This document shows positions 2,008-60,988 of a stretch of 64,000 bases of DNA, one piece after another (the first letter of the stretch is position 1; each line of letters begins with the position of its first letter). Source of the stretch: an uncultured Gammaproteobacteria bacterium (GTDB lineage: Bacteria; Pseudomonadota; Gammaproteobacteria; GCA-001735895); the NCBI GenBank assembly GCA_964480635.1, contig CAYZQE010000002.1, positions 11,101-75,100 on the forward strand. Direction: 5' to 3'. A program made the translations under genes and the position numbers. The notes below the pieces were generated by a model. That model searched no databases and was not told the DNA's origin. It saw only the letters and a program-made list of their open reading frames with translations.

Positions 2008-4371
2008 ATGAAAAAGCTCTCTTTTGGTTGGCACTCGTTAAGGTTCAAAATTGTTTTGTTTTCTGTCCTTATCGAGGTTGCCATGCTAAGTATTTTGGTA
2101 TGGAACAGTACCCGTATTGCCGAAGAGAGCTTAATTGCCCAATCACAAAATCAATTAACAGAAATTTTACCCATTTTAAATACTGCACTGTCTTCGCCTA
2201 TGTTGGCAGAAGATACGGCGACCTTAAAAGAAGTGTTAAATAAAATTGTTGCTGACCACAGTATTAACTATGTCGCCATTTATAACTCATTTAATGAACA
2301 ACTTTTAGAAAGTGGCTCTAGTAAAACAAATAAAATAAGCTCATGGGGGCGAGATTATTCTGCCCATTTACTCAATGAAGGTCTTGAAGCTCCCTATAGA
2401 ATGCGTATGTCCGTGCAAATTAGCGGTTATCCCCTAGGTAATTTAGATTTAGAGCTAGACACACAATTTATTAAAAAAACGACTGAAGATATTCGTAATC
2501 AAGGCCTATTAATCGCTGGCATTGCAATTTTACTGAGCATTTTATTACTCACTGCTCTTGGTTTTGCGCTGACTCGTAAACTTTATATATTAACTGAAGC
2601 TGCACAAAAAATGTCTACGGGTGATTTGTCCGTTCGTACCAATATACCGGGTAAGGATGAAGTCAGTGCCACCGCAGATGCCTTTAATAAAATGGCACTC
2701 TCTATCTTTCAACAAACGACTGAATTACATAAAAAACAAGAACGCTTAAATACATTGCTTGATTCTATGGAAATAGCGATTGTGTTTGAAAATAAAGAAG
2801 GCTTTATTGAATATTATAATGTTGCCTTTATGAAAATGTGGCAATTACCCCAAACAAGCATCATAAATAATGTAACTTTAGAGTCACTTCAAGGCCTTGC
2901 TCCTAATAAAGTCCTGCACACCTCTAAACCCGAAATTGTAAATTTACGCGCTGATAACCAGAAAAATATTTATCTTGATAACAAGCAAATTATTCATCAA
3001 TCCTCAAGAAAATTATTCACCGATGAAGAAACTCACTTTGGACGTTTGTGGCTGTTTGAAGATATCACTGAAAAACACAAGTCACGTCAAGAGCTCGCTT
3101 ACTTAGCAGAACATGATGCACTTACTGGACTTTTTAACCGTTATAAATTTCAACTTGAACTTGAAAATATGGCCAAAACAACCCAACGTCATAATCAAAT
3201 GTTGGTTTTATTTTATTTTGACTTAGACGAATTTAAAGCGATTAACGATAATTATGGCCACGACCAAGGTGACCTAGTACTGATTAAAATCGCAAAAGAA
3301 ATTACCTCAATTGTTCGTTCTGACGACATACTCTGCCGTATTGGAGGTGATGAATTTGCGATCTTAGCTAAAATGAATGATCACGATGAAACGCTTATTT
3401 TTGCCGAGCGTATCATCCATACCATTGCAAGAACCCCTTTTATCATTAATAAAAAAACATTGCGTATCACCTCTAGTTTAGGTGTTTCCAGTTACCCCGA
3501 TTTATCTCTTAGTCCAACAGATTTACAAACCCATGCTGATATTGCGATGTATGTGGCTAAGAATAAAGGTAAGAATGCCTTTTCTATCTATGATTCAAGC
3601 AGTGATGATATGGTCGCTTCACTTAACAGCTTAAGCTGGAATGAACGCATTGACCGAGCCTTTGACAACAATTTGTTTGAGTTACATTTTCAGGGTATTT
3701 ATCATGTTAAAGACCGAAGCATTGCTCATCTTGAATGCTTGATACGCTTAAAAGATGAAGAAAATAAAGGGCAACTCATTTCTCCTGCTGTGTTTATTCC
3801 TTATGCTGAAAAATCAGGTAAAATTTTAGATATTGATAAATGGGTCATAACCCAAGCCATCACGCTATTAGCGAGCAGTCTTGATGTTCCTTCTCTTGCT
3901 ATTAATATATCAGGGCGCTCTTTTGACCAAAAGGATTTACCTGATTTTATAGGTAAGTTAATTAAACAACATAAAATTGACCCACAAAGATTATTGGTTG
4001 AGCTCACTGAAACAGAAGCCGTATCGGATTTACAGGATGCCAAAATTTTTATAGATGCTTTACATAAAATTGGCTGTTCGGCTTGTTTAGATGATTTTGG
4101 CTCTGGGTTTTCATCTTTTGCTTATTTAAAACACATTAAAGTCGACGTGTTAAAAATTGATGGTATATTTATTCAAGACTTAGATACATCATACGAAAAT
4201 CAACTATTTGTAGAGAGCATGGTACATGTGGCTAAGGGCATGAAACAAGAAACCGTGGCTGAATTTGTTGAAAATGAAGCCATATTCAACAAATTAGAAG
4301 GCTTAGGTGTCACCTTAGCTCAAGGCTATTATTTAGATAAGCCCTCTAAAAATCACCCTGCTTTATCTTAA
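2008..4371 (+). CDS. Membrane-bound diguanylate cyclase/phosphodiesterase (2 TM + periplasmic loop, HAMP, PAS, GGDEF, EAL)
   Basis: Two hydrophobic segments flank a ~130-aa periplasmic region. GGDEF motif RIGGDEFAIL (~nt 3340-3370) and EAL motif ELTETEA (~nt 3995-4020) are both intact. Confidence 0.85.
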   Translation: MKKLSFGWHSLRFKIVLFSVLIEVAMLSILVWNSTRIAEESLIAQSQNQLTEILPILNTALSSPMLAEDTATLKEVLNKIVADHSINYVAIYNSFNEQLLESGSSKTNKISSWGRDYSAHLLNEGLEAPYRMRMSVQISGYPLGNLDLELDTQFIKKTTEDIRNQGLLIAGIAILLSILLLTALGFALTRKLYILTEAAQKMSTGDLSVRTNIPGKDEVSATADAFNKMALSIFQQTTELHKKQERLNTLLDSMEIAIVFENKEGFIEYYNVAFMKMWQLPQTSIINNVTLESLQGLAPNKVLHTSKPEIVNLRADNQKNIYLDNKQIIHQSSRKLFTDEETHFGRLWLFEDITEKHKSRQELAYLAEHDALTGLFNRYKFQLELENMAKTTQRHNQMLVLFYFDLDEFKAINDNYGHDQGDLVLIKIAKEITSIVRSDDILCRIGGDEFAILAKMNDHDETLIFAERIIHTIARTPFIINKKTLRITSSLGVSSYPDLSLSPTDLQTHADIAMYVAKNKGKNAFSIYDSSSDDMVASLNSLSWNERIDRAFDNNLFELHFQGIYHVKDRSIAHLECLIRLKDEENKGQLISPAVFIPYAEKSGKILDIDKWVITQAITLLASSLDVPSLAINISGRSFDQKDLPDFIGKLIKQHKIDPQRLLVELTETEAVSDLQDAKIFIDALHKIGCSACLDDFGSGFSSFAYLKHIKVDVLKIDGIFIQDLDTSYENQLFVESMVHVAKGMKQETVAEFVENEAIFNKLEGLGVTLAQGYYLDKPSKNHPALS

Positions 4372-10599: not shown

Positions 10600-12261
10600 T
10601 TAGTCACGTAATTCTCGACGTAATATTTTGCCCACATTCGTTTTTGGCAATTCTTGTCTAAACTCAATAATCTTCGGTACTTTATAGCCCGTTAATTGAT
10701 CTTTACACAATGCTTTAATGTCTGCTTCTGTTAATCGATCATTTTTCTTTACGATAACCGCTTTAACAATTTCGCCAGATTTGTCATCGGGCAATCCCAC
10801 CACCCCTACCTCAAGCACATCTTCATGGCTTGCGATAACGCCTTCAACTTCATTCGGAAATACATTAAAACCTGAGACTAAAATCATATCTTTTAAGCGA
10901 TCTACGATGTAGAAAAAACCATCAGCATCCATTGTGGCTATATCACCTGTATGTAACCAGCCATCTTTTAAACATAATGCCGTTTCCTCTTCTTGTTGCC
11001 AATAGCCTCTCATCACTTGAGGGCCTTTGACACAAAGCTCTCCCTTTTCTCCTTGTGGCAATATTTCATCTTGATCATTTTGAATGCACACTTGTGTTGA
11101 TGAAATAGGTAAGCCAATACTGCCATTATATTTCTTTGAATTGAGTGGGTTAATACAAACAGCAGGTGACGTTTCGGTTAAACCATAAGCTTCTAACAGT
11201 GGAGATTTTGTTTTGGCTTGCCAACGCTCAGCGACTGCTCTTTGCACCGCCATGCCGCCACCCAAAGTTATCTTAAGGTTATCAAAATTAATCTCTTCAA
11301 ACCCAGGCGTATTCATTAAGCCATTAAATAAGGTGTTGACGCCGGTTATAACACTAAAGTTTGTATTTTTTAATTCTTTAACAAAACCCGGCATATCTCG
11401 TGGGTTTGTTATCAAGTAATTCTCTGCACCAAATTTTAAAAAGGTTAAGCAATTAGCGGTTAATGAAAATATATGATACAACGGCAACGCGGTAATAATG
11501 CATTCTTTACCTTCGACAATCAGCTCTTTTATCCATTCAGATGCCTGTTGCATATTAGCTACCATGTTGCGATGTGTGAGCATGGCTCCTTTGGCAACAC
11601 CTGTTGTTCCACCTGTATACTGTAAAAACGCAATGTCATCGTGCCCTGTCGGCACATCAGTGAATGTTTGTTTACTGCCTATGGCTAATGCCTGTTTAAA
11701 AGTAACGGTTTTTTGTATCGAATATGCAGGTACCATTTTTTTTACATATTTCACTACCGCATTAACAATAAATGATTTTGGAAAAGATAGTTGATCACCT
11801 AATTGAGTGGTTATAACGGTTTCTATCTGAGTATCCTTAATAACTTTTTCTAAAGTACAGCAAAAATTTTCTACAATAATGATCGCTTTTGCACCTGAGT
11901 CATTTAACTGGTGCTTTAACTCTCTTACTGTATACAGCGGGTTGGTGTTAACAACGGTTAAGCCTGCTTTTAATGCCGCAAATATTGCAATCGGGTTTTG
12001 CAATACATTGGGCATCATAATTGCAATACGATCACCTTTTTTTAACCCTGCTACTTGTTGTAAATAGGCTGCTAATTGGTCTACCTTTTCACCAATTTGT
12101 TTATAATTCAGCGTTGTCCCTAAATTAGTAAAGCAGGGTTTTTGCTGATTTTTTATGACACTTTTATGAAATATTTCATACACAGATTGATATTCATTCA
12201 CGTCAATGTCTTGGCTTACATTGTCTGGGTAGCTTTTTAACCAAATTTGATCTTGTTCCAT
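10600..12261 (-). CDS. fadD: Long-chain-fatty-acid--CoA ligase FadD
   Basis: AMP-binding motif YTGGTTGVAKGAMLTHRN, fatty-acyl-CoA synthetase signature, C-terminal PKTNVGKILRREL. Its start overlaps the fadE stop. Confidence 0.85.
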   Translation of the reverse strand: MEQDQIWLKSYPDNVSQDIDVNEYQSVYEIFHKSVIKNQQKPCFTNLGTTLNYKQIGEKVDQLAAYLQQVAGLKKGDRIAIMMPNVLQNPIAIFAALKAGLTVVNTNPLYTVRELKHQLNDSGAKAIIIVENFCCTLEKVIKDTQIETVITTQLGDQLSFPKSFIVNAVVKYVKKMVPAYSIQKTVTFKQALAIGSKQTFTDVPTGHDDIAFLQYTGGTTGVAKGAMLTHRNMVANMQQASEWIKELIVEGKECIITALPLYHIFSLTANCLTFLKFGAENYLITNPRDMPGFVKELKNTNFSVITGVNTLFNGLMNTPGFEEINFDNLKITLGGGMAVQRAVAERWQAKTKSPLLEAYGLTETSPAVCINPLNSKKYNGSIGLPISSTQVCIQNDQDEILPQGEKGELCVKGPQVMRGYWQQEEETALCLKDGWLHTGDIATMDADGFFYIVDRLKDMILVSGFNVFPNEVEGVIASHEDVLEVGVVGLPDDKSGEIVKAVIVKKNDRLTEADIKALCKDQLTGYKVPKIIEFRQELPKTNVGKILRRELRD

Positions 12262-12263
12262 GT

Positions 12264-14708
12264 CTATTTCTCTTTTTGCTTTCTTTTTCTTATAGGTTTT
12301 TTGATAGTTTGCTCAAACTCATCAACCATAATGGCTTTTCTAATGGCTAGCTCTGCTTGTATCAATATATCTTTTTCTTTTTCATCAATTGTGTGCTCAT
12401 CCAACAATTGCAGCATCCATTCATCATTACTCATTAAATCGGGTTTGATTTTTTTCTGAGCTTTTAACCTCTTTTCAATGGGTTCCGCTAATTCTACTTT
12501 CTTAAGTGCATCTTCTAATCGCCCTGTTATGTCATTTTCATCTTCAGAGTTAAATAGACCTTCTGTTAGAGCATCTCTTGCAGGAGATGTTTTTATCATA
12601 CTTGCAGCAACTCTTTGGCCTTGTCGATCATTGGGTAAGCGTAAACTTAATCCCAGTGGAAATATAATCACTCTGATTATTAAACCAAATATTTTTGATG
12701 GGAAGTTTCTTAAAATTTCATCCAGTGCGATTTGAGTTTGATACAAACTGTATTTACAACTCCATTCAACAATAGCTAAGTCATATTTTGGCTGTCCGTC
12801 ATCGTTATATTTTTTTAACACCGCAGAGACATAAAACATATGGCTCAATGCATCGGCAAAACGCCCTGACAGTTTCTCTTTACGCTTAAATGCCCCCCCT
12901 AATATCATTAAAGCTAAATCAGAGATAACCGCAAACGCTGCACTCATTTGACTCAGACGTTTATAATATATAGCCACTCTGCCACCGACTGGTGACATGC
13001 CTAAATGACTACCGCTTAGTCCATAAATAAAGGCTCTGCTTATATTTTTAAATAAATAACCAATATGGCCTAAAAAGGCCTTATCAAAAAGTTGCTGCCC
13101 TTTCTTTTCAGAACCATGATTCACCGCTTCAATTTCTTTAATTAACCAAGGATGACAACGCATAGCGCCTTGACCAAATATAATCATAGTGCGGGTTAAA
13201 ATATTTGCGCCTTCAACGGTAATGCCTACCGGCACTGTTTGATAAGCTCTTGCCATATAGTTGGATGGCCCCATACAAATGCCACGACCACCATGAATAT
13301 CCATAGCGTTGTTAATCACATCGCGCATCATTTCTGTATTGTGATATTTTAAAATGGCTGTAATTACTGAGGGTTTTTCTCCGCTATCCAATGCCGATAG
13401 CGTTAATAAGCGACCTGCATTCATTAAATAGGTTTTGCCTGCTAAATTAGCAATCACTTCTTCTACGCCTTCAAACTTACCTATAGATGTTTTAAATTGT
13501 TTGCGTATTCGAGCATAAGCACCTGTTGTTCTTAAAGCATGTTTGCCAGCACCAGCACTCAGCGCAGGCAATGAAATACCTCGTCCCACCGATAAAGACT
13601 CGACCAACATTCTCCAGCCCAGGCCTATTTTTTCTTCACCACCAATTAACCATTCCATTGGTACAAACACATTTTTACCTTGATTTGGCCCATTTTGAAA
13701 TGCCGCGTTTAAGGGCATATGTCTATTACCTATCGTTATGCCTTTTGTTTTAGTCGGTATTAAAGCACAAGTAATGCCCAACTCTTGTTTATCGCCTAAA
13801 AGACCGTCGGGATCAAAAGCTTTAAACGCTAAACCTAGCACGGTAGCGACTGGCCCTAATGTGATGTATCTCTTTTCCCAATTGATTATAAATCCAAGTG
13901 TTTTTTTACCTTTGTATTGACGCTCACAAACAATACCATAATCAGGTATTGATCCTGCGTCAGAACCTGCACTAGGCCCCGTTAATGCGAAACAAGGGAT
14001 ATCTCTTCCATCAGCTAATCTAGGCAAGTAATGATCTTTTTGCTCTTGTGTCCCATAGTGTAATAATAGTTCAGCTGGGCCTAATGAATTTGGCACCATC
14101 ACAGTGACCGCTGTTGATAAACTTCTTGCCGAAATTTTCATCACCACATTGGAATGAGCATGAGCTGAAAACTCTAATCCACCATATTGTTTTGGAATAA
14201 TCATGCCAAAAAAGTTTTTTTGTTTTAAAAACGTCCAAACATTGTCTGGTAGGTCTTGTAACTCATGAGTGATTTGCCAATCATCTATCATGTGACAAAG
14301 TTCATTCACCGGCCCGTCTAAAAAGGCTTGCTCATCCTTTGTTAATGTTGGTTTTTTATAATTTAACAGTTTATTAAAGTCGGGATTTCCCTTAAATAAA
14401 TCGGCTTCCCACCAAACAGTTCCAGCTTCTATAGCCGCCCTTTCTGTTTCTGAGATTGGTGGCATAACTTTTTTAATGCGTTTAAATAAATTATTTGAAA
14501 TGTATTTTTGTCTTAATGAATTAAACGAATATAAAACAGCTAATGAAGCCCAAATAGCCCAAGCAAAATAACTAAATATTGAACCGTTATTAAGTATAAA
14601 AAATAAGCCAAAAAATATGATTAAAAGGTTTAACTGCGCCGATAATTCAAAACGAGTTTGTGCCCATAAAAAAATCAAAAACAAAAGAAAAAATATCAAT
14701 GTATCCAT
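12264..14708 (-). CDS. fadE: Acyl-CoA dehydrogenase FadE
   Basis: 814 aa with N-terminal membrane anchor and ACAD domains. Collinear with E. coli FadE (same length). Confidence 0.85.
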   Translation of the reverse strand: MDTLIFFLLFLIFLWAQTRFELSAQLNLLIIFFGLFFILNNGSIFSYFAWAIWASLAVLYSFNSLRQKYISNNLFKRIKKVMPPISETERAAIEAGTVWWEADLFKGNPDFNKLLNYKKPTLTKDEQAFLDGPVNELCHMIDDWQITHELQDLPDNVWTFLKQKNFFGMIIPKQYGGLEFSAHAHSNVVMKISARSLSTAVTVMVPNSLGPAELLLHYGTQEQKDHYLPRLADGRDIPCFALTGPSAGSDAGSIPDYGIVCERQYKGKKTLGFIINWEKRYITLGPVATVLGLAFKAFDPDGLLGDKQELGITCALIPTKTKGITIGNRHMPLNAAFQNGPNQGKNVFVPMEWLIGGEEKIGLGWRMLVESLSVGRGISLPALSAGAGKHALRTTGAYARIRKQFKTSIGKFEGVEEVIANLAGKTYLMNAGRLLTLSALDSGEKPSVITAILKYHNTEMMRDVINNAMDIHGGRGICMGPSNYMARAYQTVPVGITVEGANILTRTMIIFGQGAMRCHPWLIKEIEAVNHGSEKKGQQLFDKAFLGHIGYLFKNISRAFIYGLSGSHLGMSPVGGRVAIYYKRLSQMSAAFAVISDLALMILGGAFKRKEKLSGRFADALSHMFYVSAVLKKYNDDGQPKYDLAIVEWSCKYSLYQTQIALDEILRNFPSKIFGLIIRVIIFPLGLSLRLPNDRQGQRVAASMIKTSPARDALTEGLFNSEDENDITGRLEDALKKVELAEPIEKRLKAQKKIKPDLMSNDEWMLQLLDEHTIDEKEKDILIQAELAIRKAIMVDEFEQTIKKPIRKRKQKEK

Positions 14709-18988: not shown

Positions 18989-19249
18989 CTATTTCTTTAC
19001 TTTATGAGTTGGCACGGGATCATATCCACCTTCATGCCAAGGGTGACAAGAGAAGATTCTCTTTATAGCTAACCAACTTCCTTTAAAGAATCCAAATGAT
19101 TCTATAGCTTCTATAGAATAATGTGAGCATGTTGGATAGTACCGACAGTTATTCGCCATATATGGGCTAATAACTATTTGATAAAATTTGATGGGTAATA
19201 TTAAGAGTTGACGCATAATTTTTAACATTGTGTCTTCACAGTTTGCCAA
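18989..19249 (-). CDS. yidD: Membrane protein insertion efficiency factor YidD
   Basis: 86 aa with conserved [10 protein letters not shown] and [12 protein letters not shown] motifs. Confidence 0.85.
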
Positions 19250-19575
19250 TTTTTTTGCATTAACTCAAAAATTTGCTGATTGGTCTGAAACATTATTTTA
19301 TGTTTCACCATAATCAGATAACTTTTATTAGGTAATTGAGATTGAGATTGACGAAAACTTTCTCTAAAAATTCTTTTCAATCTGTTGCGATCAACAGCTT
19401 TTTTAATTTGCTTTTTAGCAATAGCAAAGCCTAAACGTGGTCGCTTAGATGTTTGCTTACTGATCAATAGCGTCATCAATGAATTTCCAATTTTTAAATT
19501 AGACTTAAAAACTTGTTGAAATTCACCACCAGTAGTTAATCTACTGTGTCGCCGAAAACAAAATTGTTCGGCCAT
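19222..19575 (-). CDS. rnpA: RNase P protein component RnpA
   Basis: 117 aa, basic, with the conserved RNR-type motif ([18 protein letters not shown]). Sits in the rpmH-rnpA-yidD-yidC context. Confidence 0.85.
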
Positions 19576-19593
19576 TGTATTAGCCTGATATGC

Positions 19594-19728
19594 CTATGGA
19601 GTTAGGCGAGCTCTACCTTTTGCTCTACGTGATTTTAATACCTTGCGACCACCAGTGGTCTGAGTACGGGCTCTAAAACCATGTGTACGGGCTCTTTTAA
19701 TTTTACTAGGTTGATATGTGCGTTTCAT
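19594..19728 (-). CDS. rpmH: 50S ribosomal protein L34
   Basis: Complement translates to [44 protein letters not shown] (44 aa). Below the ORF-track size cut-off. Located immediately upstream of rnpA as in most bacteria. Confidence 0.85.
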
Positions 19729-19767
19729 GTTACTTCCAAAAGTGTCGACTTAAAAACAAGGCGCGAT

Positions 19768-19796
19768 AATATATAATTATACCCATACTTCGTCAA
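19768..19796 (-). promoter_or_regulatory. Candidate sigma-70 promoter of the rpmH operon (-35 TTGACG, 17-nt spacer, -10 TATATT on the minus strand)
   Basis: Read on the minus strand: TTGACGaagtatgggtataattaTATATT, about 40 nt upstream of the rpmH ATG. Confidence 0.35.
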
Positions 19797-19844
19797 TCTT
19801 TATTTTAACTAAGTGCTATTTATTCACTATAAGTTATATTAATT

Positions 19845-20050
19845 AAGAAATCTCTTAACATATCAATAAAATTTTAAGCGTTATCAAGCTGTCGGCAATT
19901 ACTCCTGCATTGCTCTACTAAGTTACATCCATGTGGCTTTCCTACAGGTCGCTGCCAAATTACCACCAGCGTTAGTTATCAAATCTTGTGGTATCTAGAT
20001 GACAATGATTTGGCTTAGATAAAAATTATGGACTTAATCAGAGCATCCTT
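19845..20050 (-). mobile_element. Degenerate, internally deleted copy of the TIR element (MITE-like) in the rpmH-dnaA intergenic region
   Basis: 20026-20050 is a perfect reverse complement of the 25-bp TIR AAGGATGCTCTGATTAAGTCCATAA of the copy at 54835-55145. The ~130 bp upstream aligns with the interior of that copy (CATCCATGTGGCTTYCCTACRGGTCG..TGCCAAAT...TATCTAGATGAC...TTTGGCTTAGATAAAAA), with a deletion between the internal inverted-repeat arms. The other terminus (19845-19880) is decayed (aagaaatctcttaacatatcaat vs AAGGATGCTCTGATTAAGTCCAT). Confidence 0.6.
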
Positions 20051-20097
20051 AAGCTTTTACTGTATCCTATTCTTTTATTTAATACTGAGTAATAGCT

Positions 20098-21435
20098 TTG
20101 TCTCATCCTATCTGGACCCAATGTCTTTCTTATCTTGAAGATGAATTAAGTAGCCAACAGTTCAATACTTGGATCTTACCCCTACAATTAGAATTTAATG
20201 GTAATAATTTTAAATTATTAGCCCCTAATCGCTTTATTTTAGACTGGGTAAAAAACAATAGTTTTTCTCGAATTATTGAAATTATTCAATTTTTAGATGA
20301 TAGCAAAGCAATACAAGTCACTCTTAATATTGGCACCACTCACAAAGTTGAAGATACTCAATCAAACGTACCACAAAAAAAGAAATCATTTATTTATCAA
20401 TCTGGCCTAAATGCTAATCATACTTTTAAAAGTTTTGTTGAAGGTAAATCTAACAGTATGGCTCGAGCTGCATCCATTAGAGTAAGTAGTTTAGTGGATA
20501 ACGAATATAATCCACTGTATTTATATGGTGGGGTTGGTTTAGGAAAAACGCATTTAATGCACGCTGTTGGCAATCAAATAAAAAAAGATAACCCCGATGC
20601 CGTCGTTGTTTATGTCAATTGTGAACGTTTTATTCAAGATATGGTTAAAGCTTTACAACATAATAAAATTGATGAATTTAAAAGTCATTACCGAGGGGTT
20701 GATGCATTACTCATTGATGATATTCAATTTTTAGCTGACAAAAATAGATCCCAAGAAGAGTTTTTTCACACCTTTAACTCACTGTATGAATCAAATGCAC
20801 AAATGATTATCACCTGTGATCGCTATCCGAAAGAAATTGAGGGCTTAGAAGATAGAATAATCTCTCGTTTAGGCTGGGGTTTAGCCGTCGATATAAAGCC
20901 ACCTGATTTAGAAACACGCGTTGCAATTTTATACAGTAAAGTTTCTCAATATCAAAAAAATAATACGGTACAAAGAGAAATACCCAGTGATGTTGCTTTT
21001 TTTATAGCGCAAAACTTTAAATCAAATATTAGAGATTTGGAAGGTGCTATCAAACGTTTATTAGCCCAAGCTGATTTTACTGATTCTACCATAACAATGG
21101 AATTCACTAAATTAGCGCTAAATGATTTATTATCGGTACAAACAAAAATTATCACTATTCAATACATACAAAAAACAATTTGTGATTACTATAAATTAAG
21201 GACATCAGATTTACTTTCTGCTCGACGTACCCGGTCCATCACAAGACCTCGTCAATTAGCGATGGCTTTATGTAAAGAATTTACGCGTCATAGTCTCCCT
21301 GAAATTGGTGATGCTTTTGGCGGCAGAGACCACACAACTGTTTTACATGCTTGCAGACAAATAAAAAAATTAATTTTAGAAGAACCCACTATAAAAGATG
21401 ATTATGAAAAATTGGAAAGAATTTTATCTACTTAA
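20098..21435 (+). CDS. dnaA: Chromosomal replication initiator DnaA (TTG start)
   Basis: MSHPIWTQCLSYLEDELSSQQFNTWILPLQ parallels the E. coli DnaA N-terminus. AAA+ Walker A GGVGLGKTHLMHAVGN and C-terminal DnaA-box-binding domain present. In-frame TGA at 20086 forces the TTG start at 20098. Confidence 0.9.
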   Translation: MSHPIWTQCLSYLEDELSSQQFNTWILPLQLEFNGNNFKLLAPNRFILDWVKNNSFSRIIEIIQFLDDSKAIQVTLNIGTTHKVEDTQSNVPQKKKSFIYQSGLNANHTFKSFVEGKSNSMARAASIRVSSLVDNEYNPLYLYGGVGLGKTHLMHAVGNQIKKDNPDAVVVYVNCERFIQDMVKALQHNKIDEFKSHYRGVDALLIDDIQFLADKNRSQEEFFHTFNSLYESNAQMIITCDRYPKEIEGLEDRIISRLGWGLAVDIKPPDLETRVAILYSKVSQYQKNNTVQREIPSDVAFFIAQNFKSNIRDLEGAIKRLLAQADFTDSTITMEFTKLALNDLLSVQTKIITIQYIQKTICDYYKLRTSDLLSARRTRSITRPRQLAMALCKEFTRHSLPEIGDAFGGRDHTTVLHACRQIKKLILEEPTIKDDYEKLERILST

Positions 21436-21477
21436 ATTTGATAAAATGAATAAATAATGTATTAATTGTTATTATAT

Positions 21478-21532
21478 TGTGGATAAGTAAAATGATTAAA
21501 ATAGTATTCAGTTTATACACGAGTTATCCACA
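21478..21532. promoter_or_regulatory. Pair of consensus DnaA boxes in inverted orientation (TGTGGATAA at 21478-21486, TTATCCACA at 21524-21532) in the dnaA-dnaN spacer, the second abutting a TATAAT hexamer
   Basis: Exact 9-mer matches to the R-box consensus. ccacaaTATAATg directly follows the second box, suggesting a DnaA-controlled dnaN/recF promoter. An AT-rich stretch follows (21600-21655). Confidence 0.6.
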
Positions 21533-21655
21533 ATATAATGAACAATAAATCACTAGTGTATACATTTAAAAAATCGCCTAACTTATTGAAAAGTAATAAG
21601 TTTATTGATTTACTCACAAAATAAAATTTACTAATAATAGTAATAAAGTATATAT

Positions 21656-22756
21656 ATGAATATATCTATTAATAAAGAAGACCTTCTAGTGCCTTTACAA
21701 CAAGTAATAGGCGCAATAGAAAAAAAACAAACAATGCCAATTTTAGGTAATTTATTATTTAAATCTTTAGGCAGTCAACTTCAAATTATTGGTACTGATC
21801 GTGAGCTAGAACTCATTAGTACGATTGAGCTTAATCAAGTATCTGATATTTTCACAACCATACCCGCTCGTAAATTACTGGATATTTGTAAAGCTTTACC
21901 AAATGATGCACTCATCAATCTAGAAATAAATGAAAGCAGAGCTATTTTAAAATCATCAAAAAGTCGTTTCGCCTTAAGTACATTGCCAGCTACTGATTTT
22001 CCATTATTAGATGAACTGGATTTTTTATTTAAATTTAATGTTAAACAAAATCAATTTAAAAAATTATTAGAAAAAACATCATTTGCAATGGCTCAACAAG
22101 ACGTTAGATATTATTTAAATGGCGTTATGTTAGAAATTGAAAGTAATCAATTAAAAATTGTTGCAACAGATGGTCATAGATTAGCACTTGGATCAATTAA
22201 TGGTGACTACCCTGTCGAATCAACTTTTCAGATAATTATTCCAAGAAAAGCAGTAATGGAGCTTTCACGTTTATTAACTATAGATAATGAAGAAATAACA
22301 ATTTCAGTTAGCAAAAATCATATTCGTCTTGAATTAAAAGATATTATTTTTACTAGTAAATTAATTGATGGTAAATTTCCAGATTATAATCGTGTAATAC
22401 CATTGGATTTAAATCAAGAATTAACAATAAATAAAGATACTTTGAAAGAGACGCTACAACGCATATCTATTTTGTGTAATGAAAAATATAGAGGTATTCG
22501 TTTAACGTTAGAAAATAACACATTAAACATTAAAGCTAATAACCCTCATCAAGAAGAAGCTGAGGAAGAAATATTAGTAGATTTTGACCAAACTAAAATA
22601 AACATTGGTTTTAATGTTATTTATCTAATAGATGTATTAAATGCTATAGATACAGAGGGTGTGAAAATTCATTTAAAAGATGCTAATAGTAGTTGTGTAC
22701 TAACGAATGAAAATAATGATGATTTTAAATATGTTGTTATGCCAATGAGATTATAA
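21656..22756 (+). CDS. dnaN: DNA polymerase III beta sliding clamp
   Basis: 366 aa with three-domain clamp architecture (MNISINKEDLLVPLQQVIGAIEKKQTMPILGNLL...). Conserved dnaA-dnaN-recF-gyrB order. Confidence 0.9.
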   Translation: MNISINKEDLLVPLQQVIGAIEKKQTMPILGNLLFKSLGSQLQIIGTDRELELISTIELNQVSDIFTTIPARKLLDICKALPNDALINLEINESRAILKSSKSRFALSTLPATDFPLLDELDFLFKFNVKQNQFKKLLEKTSFAMAQQDVRYYLNGVMLEIESNQLKIVATDGHRLALGSINGDYPVESTFQIIIPRKAVMELSRLLTIDNEEITISVSKNHIRLELKDIIFTSKLIDGKFPDYNRVIPLDLNQELTINKDTLKETLQRISILCNEKYRGIRLTLENNTLNIKANNPHQEEAEEEILVDFDQTKINIGFNVIYLIDVLNAIDTEGVKIHLKDANSSCVLTNENNDDFKYVVMPMRL

Positions 22757-22762
22757 AATTAT

Positions 22763-26243
<3,481 letters not shown>

Positions 26244-53228: not shown

Positions 53229-53816
53229 TTATATTTTTTCTGCAAAAGCCTGCACCACAGCTCCTGTGCCGTTATGACATTCACCCTCGTGTATGTTGCG
53301 TATCTTTTCTTCCAAACTAATAAAATTAAGGCCATTAAATTCACGATTAAGAATATCACTATCCATCATCATAGCTGCATTCGGTGGGCCACCTGTTTGA
53401 TAGGTTAATTGTTGCGGTGTATAGGCCTCAAGTAATAACAAACCTTTATGACGAAGACCTGCCACACAATTGTTATGCACTTTTTCACGCAAGGGTGGCG
53501 GTAAATGGCAAAAAATTAAGATAATGGCATCCCATTGCTCTATGCCAATATCATATTCGGCAAGATCAGCATGAATGGTGGTTATCTTTACATCATTATT
53601 TTTTGCTAACAATTGCGCTTTTTTAAGGCCAACGGCTGATAAATCAACAGCAGTCACATCATGGCCTTGTTGTGCTAACCAAACAGCGTTTCTACCTTCG
53701 CCTTCAGCGAGACAAAGCACTTTACCAATAGGCAGTTCACTACCCATCGACACTAAAAAATCATTCGCTTTAGTACCATAGGCATATGTTTCACCGCTGT
53801 ATCGTTTATCCCACAT
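53229..53816 (-). CDS. Class I SAM-dependent methyltransferase, TehB/TPMT-like
   Basis: Motif I VLCLAEGEGRNAVWLAQQGHDVTAVDLS is similar to the TehB VLDLGCGNGRN... region. 195 aa. Confidence 0.6.
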   Translation of the reverse strand: MWDKRYSGETYAYGTKANDFLVSMGSELPIGKVLCLAEGEGRNAVWLAQQGHDVTAVDLSAVGLKKAQLLAKNNDVKITTIHADLAEYDIGIEQWDAIILIFCHLPPPLREKVHNNCVAGLRHKGLLLLEAYTPQQLTYQTGGPPNAAMMMDSDILNREFNGLNFISLEEKIRNIHEGECHNGTGAVVQAFAEKI

Positions 53817-53828
53817 TTTAGTCTCCTT

Positions 53829-54090
53829 AAGGAAATCCTGATTAACTCCATAATTTTTATCTAAGCCAAATTATTGTCAGCTAGGCATCGGATTGTAGTG
53901 TCATCTAGATACCACAAAATTCGATAACAACGCTGACGATCATTTGGCAACGACCCGTAGGGCGATCTATCAAGCCATTCTCTCCGTCGTTCCAACTTTC
54001 ACTAAGGACTCGTCATTAGTTTCAAGTTGCGCCTAGGATAGAACGGCTTGATAGATCGTAAAAGTTTATGGAGTTAATCAGGATTTCCTT
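53829..54090. mobile_element. MITE-like element copy A (262 bp) with perfect 25-bp terminal inverted repeats AAGGAAATCCTGATTAACTCCATAA
   Basis: Left TIR 53829-53853 and right TIR 54066-54090 are exact reverse complements. The interior is shared with copies at 54835-55145 and 19845-20050 (TTTTTATCTAAGCCAAA..., GGCAACGACCCGTAGGG..., internal 19-bp inverted repeat CGATCTATCAAGCCATTCT/AGAACGGCTTGATAGATCG). No ORF. Confidence 0.7.
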
Positions 54091-54104
54091 AAGAGTGTTC
54101 AAAA

Positions 54105-54488
54105 TTATTTAATGACTCGAAAAAAACCGATTTGGCGAATCGCAATTGCGGTGAAAAGCATGGCGATTATCCATAAAACTGGCCCAACAATACCAGGGAA
54201 CAAAGGAAAATGTTCTGGTACCAGTATATGAACGATATATCCAATATCTGAAATAGCTGCAATACTCAGATTAAGCCAAAAGCCAAGACGACTATTCTTC
54301 CAATTGAGCATTATGGCAATAATGCTCACCGCAATCGCGATGAATAGTAGATTCCAAGCATCCTGATAGACTCTGCCTTGAACAATTCCTGGTTCTAATA
54401 ACAACCCTAGCTGATAAGTTGCTATAGCTGCTTTTACATGTACCAAGCCCCAAAGCAGATAGAGTACAGAGCCTATTTTATGCATCAT
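54105..54488 (-). CDS. Hypothetical 4-TM membrane protein
   Basis: 127 aa, four hydrophobic helices. Flanked by MITE-like copies A and B. Confidence 0.4.
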   Translation of the reverse strand: MMHKIGSVLYLLWGLVHVKAAIATYQLGLLLEPGIVQGRVYQDAWNLLFIAIAVSIIAIMLNWKNSRLGFWLNLSIAAISDIGYIVHILVPEHFPLFPGIVGPVLWIIAMLFTAIAIRQIGFFRVIK

Positions 54489-54498
54489 GTCTTAATCC

Positions 54499-55802
54499 TC
54501 AGTCGACTCGAAGTGCCATGATGATTTTATAGCAATGATCTTTCGTCCAGATATCTACGCCACCTAATCTTTTAGTCCACTTAGGTTCAGTTAAGCTTGC
54601 GCACTTTAACGAGACGGCATTTAAATAGGTATCAAACAACAGTGAGGTATTTTCAAAACCGACTTTACCAGCAATTTCATAAAAACTGACTGTCTGTAGT
54701 GCTTTGCCAGCATTGGTTTGAATATCGAACATATACTGTTTTTGAACTTCAACATCATCACGTGTTGCTAGTCTGCCCCAATGACCTGATACCAAGGTGT
54801 TAAAATCATAAGATAAAATCACATCATGAGACTTAAGGATGCTCTGATTAAGTCCATAATTTTTATCTAAGCCAAATTTTACTCAGCTAGGCGTAGCATT
54901 GCAACGTCATCTAGATACCGTAAAATGCTAGAACGACGCTGGGTGAAATTTGGCAACGACCCGTAGGGAAGCCACATGGATGTGGTGAATGTCGATAATG
55001 CAGGAGCATTTATCGACCTAGCTATCAAGCCATTCTATCCGTCGTTCCAACTTTTACTAAGGACTTGTCATTAGCTTCAAGTTGCGCCTAGTATAGAACG
55101 GCTTGATAGCTCGTAAAATTTTATGGACTTAATCAGAGCATCCTTCATAAAGCCGATGCTATCTTCTGCTATGGCTAGACCTTTAAAGGGTGTCCAGCCA
55201 GGGAAAACAATATCAACCTTCATTAATACTTTTTGTTTTGGCGCATATACATAAATATTGCCCGGCTCATGATCATCGCCTTTATATTCAAGTTTTAAGG
55301 TTTGATTGCCGACGTTTAAAGTATAGTTGTCTTCAAAAGTAACAGTCGGCATTGGTACTGGTTTGCCACCAACAAACATGCCATAAGGAAAAGGCCTGTC
55401 CTTATCATTCATGCGCTCTAAACGATGTTTAGTTTGTACATGAGCAATGTATGTTGCATTTTTAGGAAAAAGATATGCCCCGCCGATATGGTCGGCATGA
55501 GCATGGCTATAAACAACATGAGTAATCGGCTCATCGGTTACCTCTGCAATCGCTTTTAGCATTTTGTCACCAAATGAAGGCGGTGCATCAACGACAATAA
55601 CGCCCTGCCCTGTGGTTAAAAACATGGCGGTATACGCACCTTCTGTTACCCAATACAGACCGTTATTAATTTCTTTTACGGCATAACCTTTATCTTGTGA
55701 AATAGGCACACCTTTGGCTATATCTGGAACGGGGGCGACGGCATAGGCTAATGAATGGCTCATTAAAAATGATAAAGCCAGTAAAATTACTTTTGTGGAC
55801 AC
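54499..55802 (-). pseudogene. MBL-fold metallo-hydrolase (subclass B3-like beta-lactamase family) split by insertion of MITE-like copy B
   Basis: N-terminal part (55802->55146) has a signal peptide and the B3-type zinc motif YSHAHADHIGG. It reads into the element TIR (…GFM then KDALIKSIKF… encoded by the element) and terminates there. The remaining C-terminal fold (…DVILSYDFNTLVSGHWGRL…) resumes in another ORF immediately after the element (54834 downward, GTG-initiated in the track). Confidence 0.65.
54835..55145. mobile_element. MITE-like element copy B (311 bp) with perfect 25-bp TIRs AAGGATGCTCTGATTAAGTCCATAA, inserted in the MBL-fold gene
   Basis: Left TIR 54835-54859 and right TIR 55121-55145 are exact reverse complements. 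No coding capacity. 311 is not a multiple of 3. The interrupted host gene is continuous in similarity on both sides. Confidence 0.75.
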
Positions 55803-59231: not shown

Positions 59232-59460
59232 TTTGACCGTCTTTATATCGTGTTAGTTAAGGAGACATTGAACAAGTCCAATAATTTTGAACTTGCTAAA
59301 ACTGCCGATATTTTCACCGAAAATCGCAGCAATAGAGCGACTATTACGACTCATTTCGACGAAAATAGCGACAGTTTTTTCTGCGCTCAAATTTTATTAA
59401 CTTAATCAAAGGCTCCTTAATGTTACATTATGACGGATAATTTTAAAGAGAGAGAGAAAA

Positions 59461-60704: not shown

Positions 60705-60988
60705 AATACTTAAGTTTATTTAATTTGAAGGCTATAAAGACCGCTTATCCGAGATAGATTGTCATCTATCTTCAAATACTAGCCTGAACTCACTTCTGAA
60801 CTATACTGCAAAAAACTATCCCTTGGCTTTACAATATTGGACTTGCTCAGAGGCTCCTTTAGGGGTTGCCGCAATAATAGCGTCTGTGGCAGTACCAAAT
60901 ATGCAAGACTTTGTTGAAGAGGAGATGAACATGCCAAAGTACTTAGTATCTCAAGAATGGGGCGTGTTCGCCGTTCAGGTACGGCATC

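Follow-up and report, generated by a model that had tools for sequence, protein, structure and literature searches.

Repeat loci in the analysed window

We analysed a 64-kb stretch of DNA (hereafter the window; 64,000 nucleotides, contig CAYZQE010000002.1, positions 11,101 to 75,100) from an uncultured gammaproteobacterium, in which a first-pass annotation made from the letters alone had pointed to a family of short repeats bounded by terminal inverted repeats (TIRs). Two copies with intact arms, A (53829-54090) and B (54835-55145), share ~84% sequence identity. Element B lies inside a gene for an MBL-fold hydrolase and carries a perfect 25-bp TIR, which forms a terminal stem closing five internal hairpins. 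Element A is placed between the stop of a gene for a 127-amino acid (aa) protein (54105) and the start of a methyltransferase gene (53816), 10 nt upstream of the latter. A repeat finder and direct reading agreed that both are real repeats with inverted-repeat arms, as had been claimed. BLAST, nhmmer and a Hamming scan of the window yielded five loci: copies A, B and C of the first-pass annotation were confirmed, while its count of three did not hold, since the relative D and the remnant E had to be added (Table 1).

Element C proved to be the degenerate copy that it had been taken for. It is inverted and decayed, its right end is identical to that of B, its left end is degenerate, and it is without the second large hairpin (hairpin 2) and 24 nt of hairpin 1. 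It lies between rpmH and dnaA, 45 nt upstream of the start of the latter. A 49-nt module of two hairpins is present in B and C and absent from A. Element D, located 26 nt upstream of the start of a glyoxalase gene (59231, minus strand), has TIR-like arms (left AAGGAGACATTGAACAAGTCCA; right, as reverse complement, AAGGAGCCTTTGATTAAGTTAA), and its right end agrees with that of B in 25 of 30 positions; this alignment scores 20, and none of 2,936 random windows scores above 13. The interior of D is unlike that of A and B, yet it is also palindromic (DNA fold z -5.7). Unlike the perfect TIRs of A and B, the arms of C and D are degenerate. Remnant E agrees with the terminal 22-mer of B at 18 of 22 positions, which is the top match in the window outside the full copies and a weak one (nhmmer model positions 1-42, E 1.3).

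Table 1. Elements, target tetranucleotides and gene parts in the window (positions are those of the window).
Feature	Position	Strand	Remarks
Element A	53829-54090	+	262 bp; core 53831-54088
Element B	54835-55145	+	311 bp counting AAGG...CCTT; GG...CC core 54837-55143; longest copy
Element C	19843-20052	-	~206 bp; core 19847-20048; TTAA on both sides; inverted, decayed
Element D	59257-59420	+	~160 bp; core 59261-59416; TTAA/TTAA flanks; diverged relative
Remnant E	60822-60859	-	left end: TIR and start of hairpin 1, then TTTA; weak evidence
MBL-fold hydrolase gene, N-terminal 219 codons	55146-55802	-	called open reading frame adds 22 element-encoded codons, stop at 55077
MBL-fold hydrolase gene, C-terminal 111 codons	54499-54834	-	back in frame after removal of core and one TTAA (311 bp)
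TTAA left of A	53827-53830		partner 54089-54092
TTAA left of B	54833-54836		partner 55144-55147 reads TTCA
TTAA around C	19843-19846 and 20049-20052		
TTAA around D	59257-59260 and 59417-59420		

Interrupted hydrolase gene and empty sites

The open reading frame (ORF) 55802-55077 on the minus strand encodes an MBL-fold hydrolase whose last 22 codons come from element B, and the ORF directly beyond B (54834-54499) continues the same protein. When the GG...CC core and one TTAA were removed, the rejoined protein comprised 330 aa and covered intact 330-aa homologues over 100% of their length at 78-85% identity. The 241-aa product of the interrupted gene is a singleton in the protein collection (P0075).

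Metagenome contig L086 has the same gene order as the window (LysR, MBL, 126-aa membrane protein, methyltransferase, CDGSH), with an uninterrupted MBL gene and a spacer of 75 nt at the place of A; hence both the A and the B site are empty there. At the A site L086 reads TTTTAGGAGA versus CTTAAGGAGA in the window. The B site of L086 holds a single CTTAAG at 10652-10657, in the context GGTTTT-CTTAAG-GCGCATGATG, and the minus strand of the window reads GGCTTT-ATGAAG-[G...C]-CTTAAG-TCTCATGATG. In addition, no C-like element was found in the syntenic rpmH-dnaA loci of four relatives (L159-L162; DnaA 82-90% identical; L162 covers only 196 nt upstream of dnaA), where the spacer is too diverged past the first ~100 nt next to rpmH for the exact empty C site to be placed. 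The copies are insertions, as a conserved gene split by B, the empty A and B sites of L086 and the absence of C in relatives demonstrate.

Element B could instead be a self-splicing intron or another intervening sequence that leaves the MBL gene functional. Its place inside a coding sequence, the exact restoration of the frame upon removal of the element together with 4 bp, and a size within the range of small group I introns are in keeping with this idea. We nevertheless consider it highly improbable: Rfam returned no group I or group II match at permissive thresholds, introns are not built with a perfect terminal stem of 25 bp, the other copies A, C and D lie between genes, and the borders are flanked by TTAA as in a transposon.

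Coding capacity and searches for a cognate enzyme

The elements are non-coding, with stops in all six frames. A six-frame peptide query of the element against 5.8 billion proteins retrieved only the tail of the window's own ORF (P0075). Among the window ORFs of 100 aa or more, five of which had no Pfam match at all, Pfam scans detected no transposase, integrase, Y1 or RAYT domain, so for ORFs of this size the first-pass statement that the window holds no transposase is borne out. Neither TnpA nor TnpB was found in the window. Rfam gave 0 matches at gathering thresholds over the whole window and, over positions 53700-55300 at E up to 10, only chance matches to miRNA and snoRNA families and no group I or group II intron. 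The first-pass annotation had allowed that the repeats might turn out to be a known structured RNA gene or an integron attC site; they match no Rfam family and are devoid of attC features. Furthermore, scans for promoter-like and terminator-like sites showed no enrichment.

Terminal inverted repeats and the TTAA target

The repeat finder delimited arms of 33 nt for A (53826-53858/54061-54093, 94% complementary) and of 30 nt for B (54835-54864/55116-55145, 93% complementary), and two families of direct repeats joining A to B (81% and 90% identity). On direct reading, complementarity is uninterrupted over 28 bp in A when the flanking CTT/AAG is counted (CTTAAGGAAATCCTGATTAACTCCATAA) and over 25 bp in B (AAGGATGCTCTGATTAAGTCCATAA). 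The window holds five occurrences of the TIR core CTGATTAASTCCATAA, where 0.19 would be expected from shuffles. The TIR has a conserved AAGG tip and a conserved inner block, CTGATTAA-S-TCCATAA; the short block that separates the two (positions 6-9) is variable, as is position 18. Five TIR positions, 6-9 and 18, distinguish A from B, each with a mirrored change in the opposite arm, as described before; the end-to-end templating suggested there would be a hypothetical cause. Written for the left arm and including the preceding A5, the tip block reads AAATC in A, ATGCT in B and at the right end of C, AATCT at the left end of C and in the truncated copy L002 of another genome, AGCCT at the right end of D and in E, and AAGCT in a putative relic on L086; only in A and B are both arms intact and matching at this block. 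The 19-bp internal inverted repeat noted in the first pass is present as well. The second internal pairing proposed there, between GAACGACG and CGTCGTTC, is perfect in B only; A reads TAACAACG, with two uncompensated mismatches, which leaves this pairing unsupported.

A, C and D are each bordered by two TTAA, and B by TTAA and TTCA; for eight ends this is far above chance, and the T-TA-A pattern holds at 7 of the 8. TTAA is palindromic, so that in a filled site a duplication of the target looks the same as insertion between TT and AA, with a TIR extending by AA/TT. On the sequences, three accounts of the target are open alternatives. The elements may have generated a 4-bp TTAA duplication, which would need one later mutation at B; an element ending in AAGG...CCTT may have entered the centre of the tetranucleotide, between TT and AA, without any duplication; or the insertion may have duplicated the 3-bp AAG. 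The element-adjacent AA is kept at every end examined and the outer TT is lost at two (B right and L002), which mildly favours AA/TT as part of the element.

The ends also bear on the proposal that the repeats are integron attC sites bounding gene cassettes. Such sites are defined by R''/R' core sites (RYYYAAC ... GTTRRRY) with an adjacent intI and a usual size of 57-141 bp. Imperfect palindromes whose arms co-vary between copies, and the position of A and B on either side of a short stretch of same-strand ORFs, would agree with it. The ends, however, read AAGGA...TCCTT and ...GGAGTTAATCAGGATTTCCTTAA, with no RYYYAAC/GTTRRRY core; at 262-311 bp the elements are well over the attC range; no integrase domain occurs in the window ORFs screened; and B sits inside a gene. 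What would have to be the cassette, the stretch from A to B, consists of one syntenic chromosomal gene and half of the MBL gene. We give this proposal next to no credence.

Distribution outside the window

TIR scans of the sequence collections required an exact match to a 21-nt pattern and would miss a diverged parent. The genome collection returned 9 loci, of which only L002 was genuine: a truncated left part, 86-92% identical over 59-93 nt, in a gammaproteobacterial metagenome-assembled genome of visibly higher GC, with cytochrome c biogenesis genes and no parent transposase as neighbours. All of the 70 metagenome loci were chance matches on a BLAST screen, as were all 6 viral loci, and viral scans with two interior motifs also yielded nothing. 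BLAST searches of plasmids and phages with B and with a 46-nt end produced either no match or chance 18-24-mers. In ~90 kb of DNA from relatives the family was absent, apart from a possible solo end on L086 (3634-3655). There, ATACTTATTCAGAGCTTCCTTAAG at 3625-3660 resembles a solo right end (BLAST 20/22, 90.9%, E 0.006, small database), which may be a relic of the same family. A Logan contig (L091; SRR9822617) from the same or a near-identical organism, with an identical CDGSH protein, ends at its positions 1-28 at the inner edge of the 28-bp TIR of A; this suggests an assembly break caused by a repeat or hairpin and proves nothing about copy number.

Fold and covariation

Folded as RNA, element A reached -125.3 kcal/mol on the plus strand and -124.7 on the minus strand, and B -134.9 and -132.7, respectively, with z-scores between -12.4 and -15.3 (A -15.3 and -14.1; B plus strand -12.4). 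Folded as DNA, B gave a z of -12.9. Both elements take the shape of a terminal stem that encloses independent hairpins, of which A has two large ones and B has five. A comparison of these two copies shows 12-13 base pairs that are changed on both sides and still paired, versus 2-7 that are broken, and ~60% of the substitutions between them fall within compensated base pairs. We measured covariation by explicit pair counting on the alignment of A, B and C, with the structure taken from B, an origin that inflates the paired percentage and not the count of double-sided changes. There were 15 double-sided pair changes and 94.5% of cells were paired; slid controls gave 0-2 such changes with 33-41% paired, and 0 of 500 shuffles reached the observed values. 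Compensated pairs occur in the terminal stem, at both levels of hairpin 1, in the hairpin specific to B and C, and in hairpin 2. Hence the earlier suspicion that structure matters was well founded.

The number of G-U pairs hardly depends on the strand folded (5 vs 3 in A, 5 vs 4 in B), which indicates that the constraint is not strand-specific. This argues for a cause at the DNA level, such as a hairpin or cruciform or arm-to-arm correction, over selection on one RNA. The first-pass annotation had left room for an expressed structured RNA, an option to which the strand comparison lends no support. A functional RNA, be it a small RNA (sRNA) or a cis-regulatory element of mRNA, might all the same have been preserved by selection, with mobility secondary or ancient. 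The very stable fold and strong covariation would fit such a function; MITE transcripts in other bacteria form stable stem-loops and yield sRNAs (PMC10969869; for MITEs see below), and A, C and D lie just upstream of start codons. We judge it very unlikely, as Rfam gave no meaningful match across the locus at E values as high as 10, a conserved gene has been destroyed by one of the copies, and the orthologous sites in relatives are without copies. Moreover, the two strands do not differ in how well they fold and have similar G-U counts, there is no enrichment of promoter-like or terminator-like sites, and the orientation to neighbouring genes is inconsistent.

Favoured interpretation and possible mechanism

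[quoted passage not shown] We put the probability of this reading at about three in four. The split gene, the empty sites and the absence of an enzyme in cis support the core of what had been proposed at the outset, a non-coding, TIR-bounded, non-autonomous mobile family. MITEs are defined as elements below 500 bp with TIRs of 4-30 bp, flanking direct repeats and stable stem-loops (PMC10969869). Measured against the length and TIR limits used for prokaryotes (<500 bp; ~4-30 bp), A has 262, B 311, C ~206 and D ~160 bp, and the perfect TIRs are 28 bp (A) and 25 bp (B) long. Coding capacity is lacking, and mobility is evident from filled and empty sites and the disrupted gene.

In the proposed scheme, the form of ~311 bp represented by B would be the full one, from which A would derive by internal deletion; C would be a decayed copy, D a relative sharing the ends only, and E a solo end. 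A transposase encoded elsewhere would bind the conserved block of the TIRs and integrate the element at TTAA, either with a 4-bp TTAA duplication or into the centre of the tetranucleotide. Element D, which has the TIR and the TTAA in common with the other copies and differs from them in its interior, supports recognition of the ends by the enzyme. The likeliest candidate would be a DDE transposase of the IS630/Tc1-mariner type, a lead only, which we name because a gammaproteobacterial IS630 member, ISHsp2, was reported to make TTAA repeats. The matching of the arms might come from a need for a hairpin or cruciform in propagation, or from arm-to-arm correction at the DNA level, rather than from an RNA function. 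With regard to the host, insertion of B has inactivated the MBL hydrolase gene, and A, C and D, judging by their positions in front of start codons, may alter the expression of the genes downstream.

Several points weigh against this interpretation. An autonomous parent, or a transposase with matching ends, was not found in the window, by BLAST in the plasmid and phage collections, or in the genome, metagenome and viral collections within the reach of the exact-match scans, and the sole copy found outside the source genome is the truncated L002. A TTAA duplication is indistinguishable from insertion of an AA...TT-ended element between TT and AA, and the second tetranucleotide of B is TTCA, not TTAA. 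The closest intact MBL homologue (L092, 90% aa identity) has ATC AAA at the B site and is uninformative on the state before insertion. Finally, a plain cut-and-paste MITE offers no obvious reason for compensatory changes in internal hairpins. The mirrored TIR differences and the internal covariation, which plain cut-and-paste leaves unexplained, give room for a structure-dependent single-strand mechanism.

Under such a mechanism the elements would move as hairpins of folded single-stranded DNA, handled by a structure-specific enzyme (an HUH/Y1 enzyme of the IS200/IS605 or RAYT kind, or an attC-like tyrosine recombinase) and not by a DDE enzyme acting on duplex TIRs. The TTAA would be the tetranucleotide of cleavage or target and not a duplication, and the tip block could change only if both arms change. 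Compensatory changes in at least five separate helices, beyond the TIR, and the absence of the G-U strand asymmetry, as for DNA rather than RNA, speak for it. REPINs, thought to be moved as single-stranded DNA by RAYTs, show frequent compensatory changes across their hairpin (PMC3116915). Moreover, with the tetranucleotide on the right counted as part of the element, the TTAA/TTCA pair of B can be explained without a later mutation. Nevertheless, long perfect TIRs spanning a whole element are not the architecture of IS200/IS605 or REP families, no Y1, RAYT or integrase domain appeared among the screened ORFs, and D has the ends without the internal hairpins, which points to end recognition. 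The orientation relative to the GC-skew minimum is consistent in 4 of 5 loci only and not significant. We therefore regard movement through a folded single strand cut at TTAA as unlikely.

Genomic surroundings and implications

The region 19222-26243 of the window is the chromosomal origin region, with mnmE, yidC, rnpA and rpmH on the minus strand and dnaA, dnaN, recF and gyrB on the plus strand. The minimum of the cumulative GC skew falls at ~20-22 kb of the window, and dnaA apparently starts with TTG at 20098. The spacer between rpmH and dnaA measures 368 nt, over half of which is element C. The dnaN-recF stretch (21500-24000) has 24-28% GC, versus ~36% for the whole window. A replication-direction bias in the orientation of the elements (A, B and D plus, right of the skew minimum; C minus, left of it) was considered and dropped, being broken by E at n=5. 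In relative L162 the contig begins 196 nt upstream of dnaA, and this segment (1-196) is richer in GC and unrelated to the usual AT-rich spacer; possibly another insertion at this hotspot has its edge here.

The hydrophobic 127-aa ORF (54105-54488, minus strand) beside the MBL gene has no Pfam match; L086 and L089 have counterparts of 126 aa and 123 aa, respectively, in the same place, and since this position is conserved it is probably a real gene. In L092 the methyltransferase follows directly after the MBL gene. L086 carries an IS110-family transposase (13233-14276; DEDD_Tnp_IS110 and Transposase_20) just downstream of the CDGSH gene, with no evident link to the MITEs; the matching position of the window is held by maeB.

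As TTAA-targeting MITEs, the elements would explain the split and misannotated hydrolase, now seen as an orphan 107-aa ORF and a 241-aa product whose last 22 residues are encoded by the element. They would likewise explain why several intergenic regions are oversized, among them the one directly upstream of dnaA. They would add a TTAA-targeting MITE family from a poorly sampled, low-GC lineage of gammaproteobacteria and lend themselves as a clean natural test of whether MITEs need hairpin formation as such in order to propagate. What sets this otherwise unsurprising MITE apart is the TTAA targeting together with unusually strong, strand-symmetric structural covariation. Should the parent enzyme be structure-specific and not of the DDE type, the family would gain in interest; propagation through a folded single strand would make it a mobile element of a new kind, specified by structure and targeting TTAA, and not a deletion derivative of an ordinary DDE insertion sequence.

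Comparison with known systems

Like integron attC sites, the elements vary in sequence between copies and preserve the complementarity of their arms; unlike them, they have no core sites, integrase or cassette-array context, their size is out of range and one copy lies inside a gene. The identity with attC was discarded on the missing core sites and integrase. The IS200/IS605 and REP families have subterminal hairpins and asymmetric ends. The PATE derived from IS200/IS605 have no TIR and no target-site duplication, and insert 3' of a fixed tetra- or pentanucleotide; the fixed left TTAA of A-D would fit this pattern, whereas the long perfect TIRs do not.

REPINs are described as ~100 nt long and composed of two short REPs with conserved GTAG- or CGTC-type tags (PMC3733652). 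The elements resemble REPINs in being non-autonomous and non-coding, in forming one long hairpin with compensatory changes (PMC3116915), and, on the favoured reading, in depending on an enzyme encoded elsewhere in the genome. REPINs differ by having neither a target-site duplication nor 25-bp TIRs; the elements of the window are three times longer, contain nested independent hairpins and are not accompanied by a RAYT in the window. REPINs comprise two inverted REPs of 20-40 nt and go with an associated RAYT; a REPIN or REP identity was rejected on the 25-bp TIR, the nested hairpins over 262-311 bp and the lack of a Y1_Tnp domain in the window.

ISHsp2 of the IS630 family, from Halomonas sp. 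ZM3, is reported to produce 4-bp TTAA direct repeats and has terminal inverted repeats of 26 bp (PMC3606827). The TA-centred target and the gammaproteobacterial host are shared with our elements, whose TTAA flanks may correspond to its repeats; ISHsp2 is a lead and not an established relationship. Its inverted repeats carry 10 mismatches, while those of A and B are perfect, and no transposase accompanies the elements in the window; the likeness is one of description.

No sequence similarity to a known element was detected in the plasmid, phage, genome and metagenome collections searched. In their organisation, the elements are closest in kind to prokaryotic MITEs, of which Correia/NEMIS in Neisseria, RUP in S. 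pneumoniae, QMITE1/2 in Coxiella burnetii and ERIC are examples. Common to them are a length below 500 bp, TIRs of ~25 bp, AT-richness, the lack of an ORF and a stable stem-loop formed by the whole element. They are also alike in being mostly intergenic, with some copies in genes or at 3' ends, where they add element-encoded protein tails, and in having size variants that arise by gain or loss of internal modules. In contrast to the TA flanks of Correia and RUP and the 7-9-bp repeats of QMITE2, the elements of the window are flanked by TTAA, and an unusually high proportion of their substitutions is compensated, which preserves the multi-hairpin interior.

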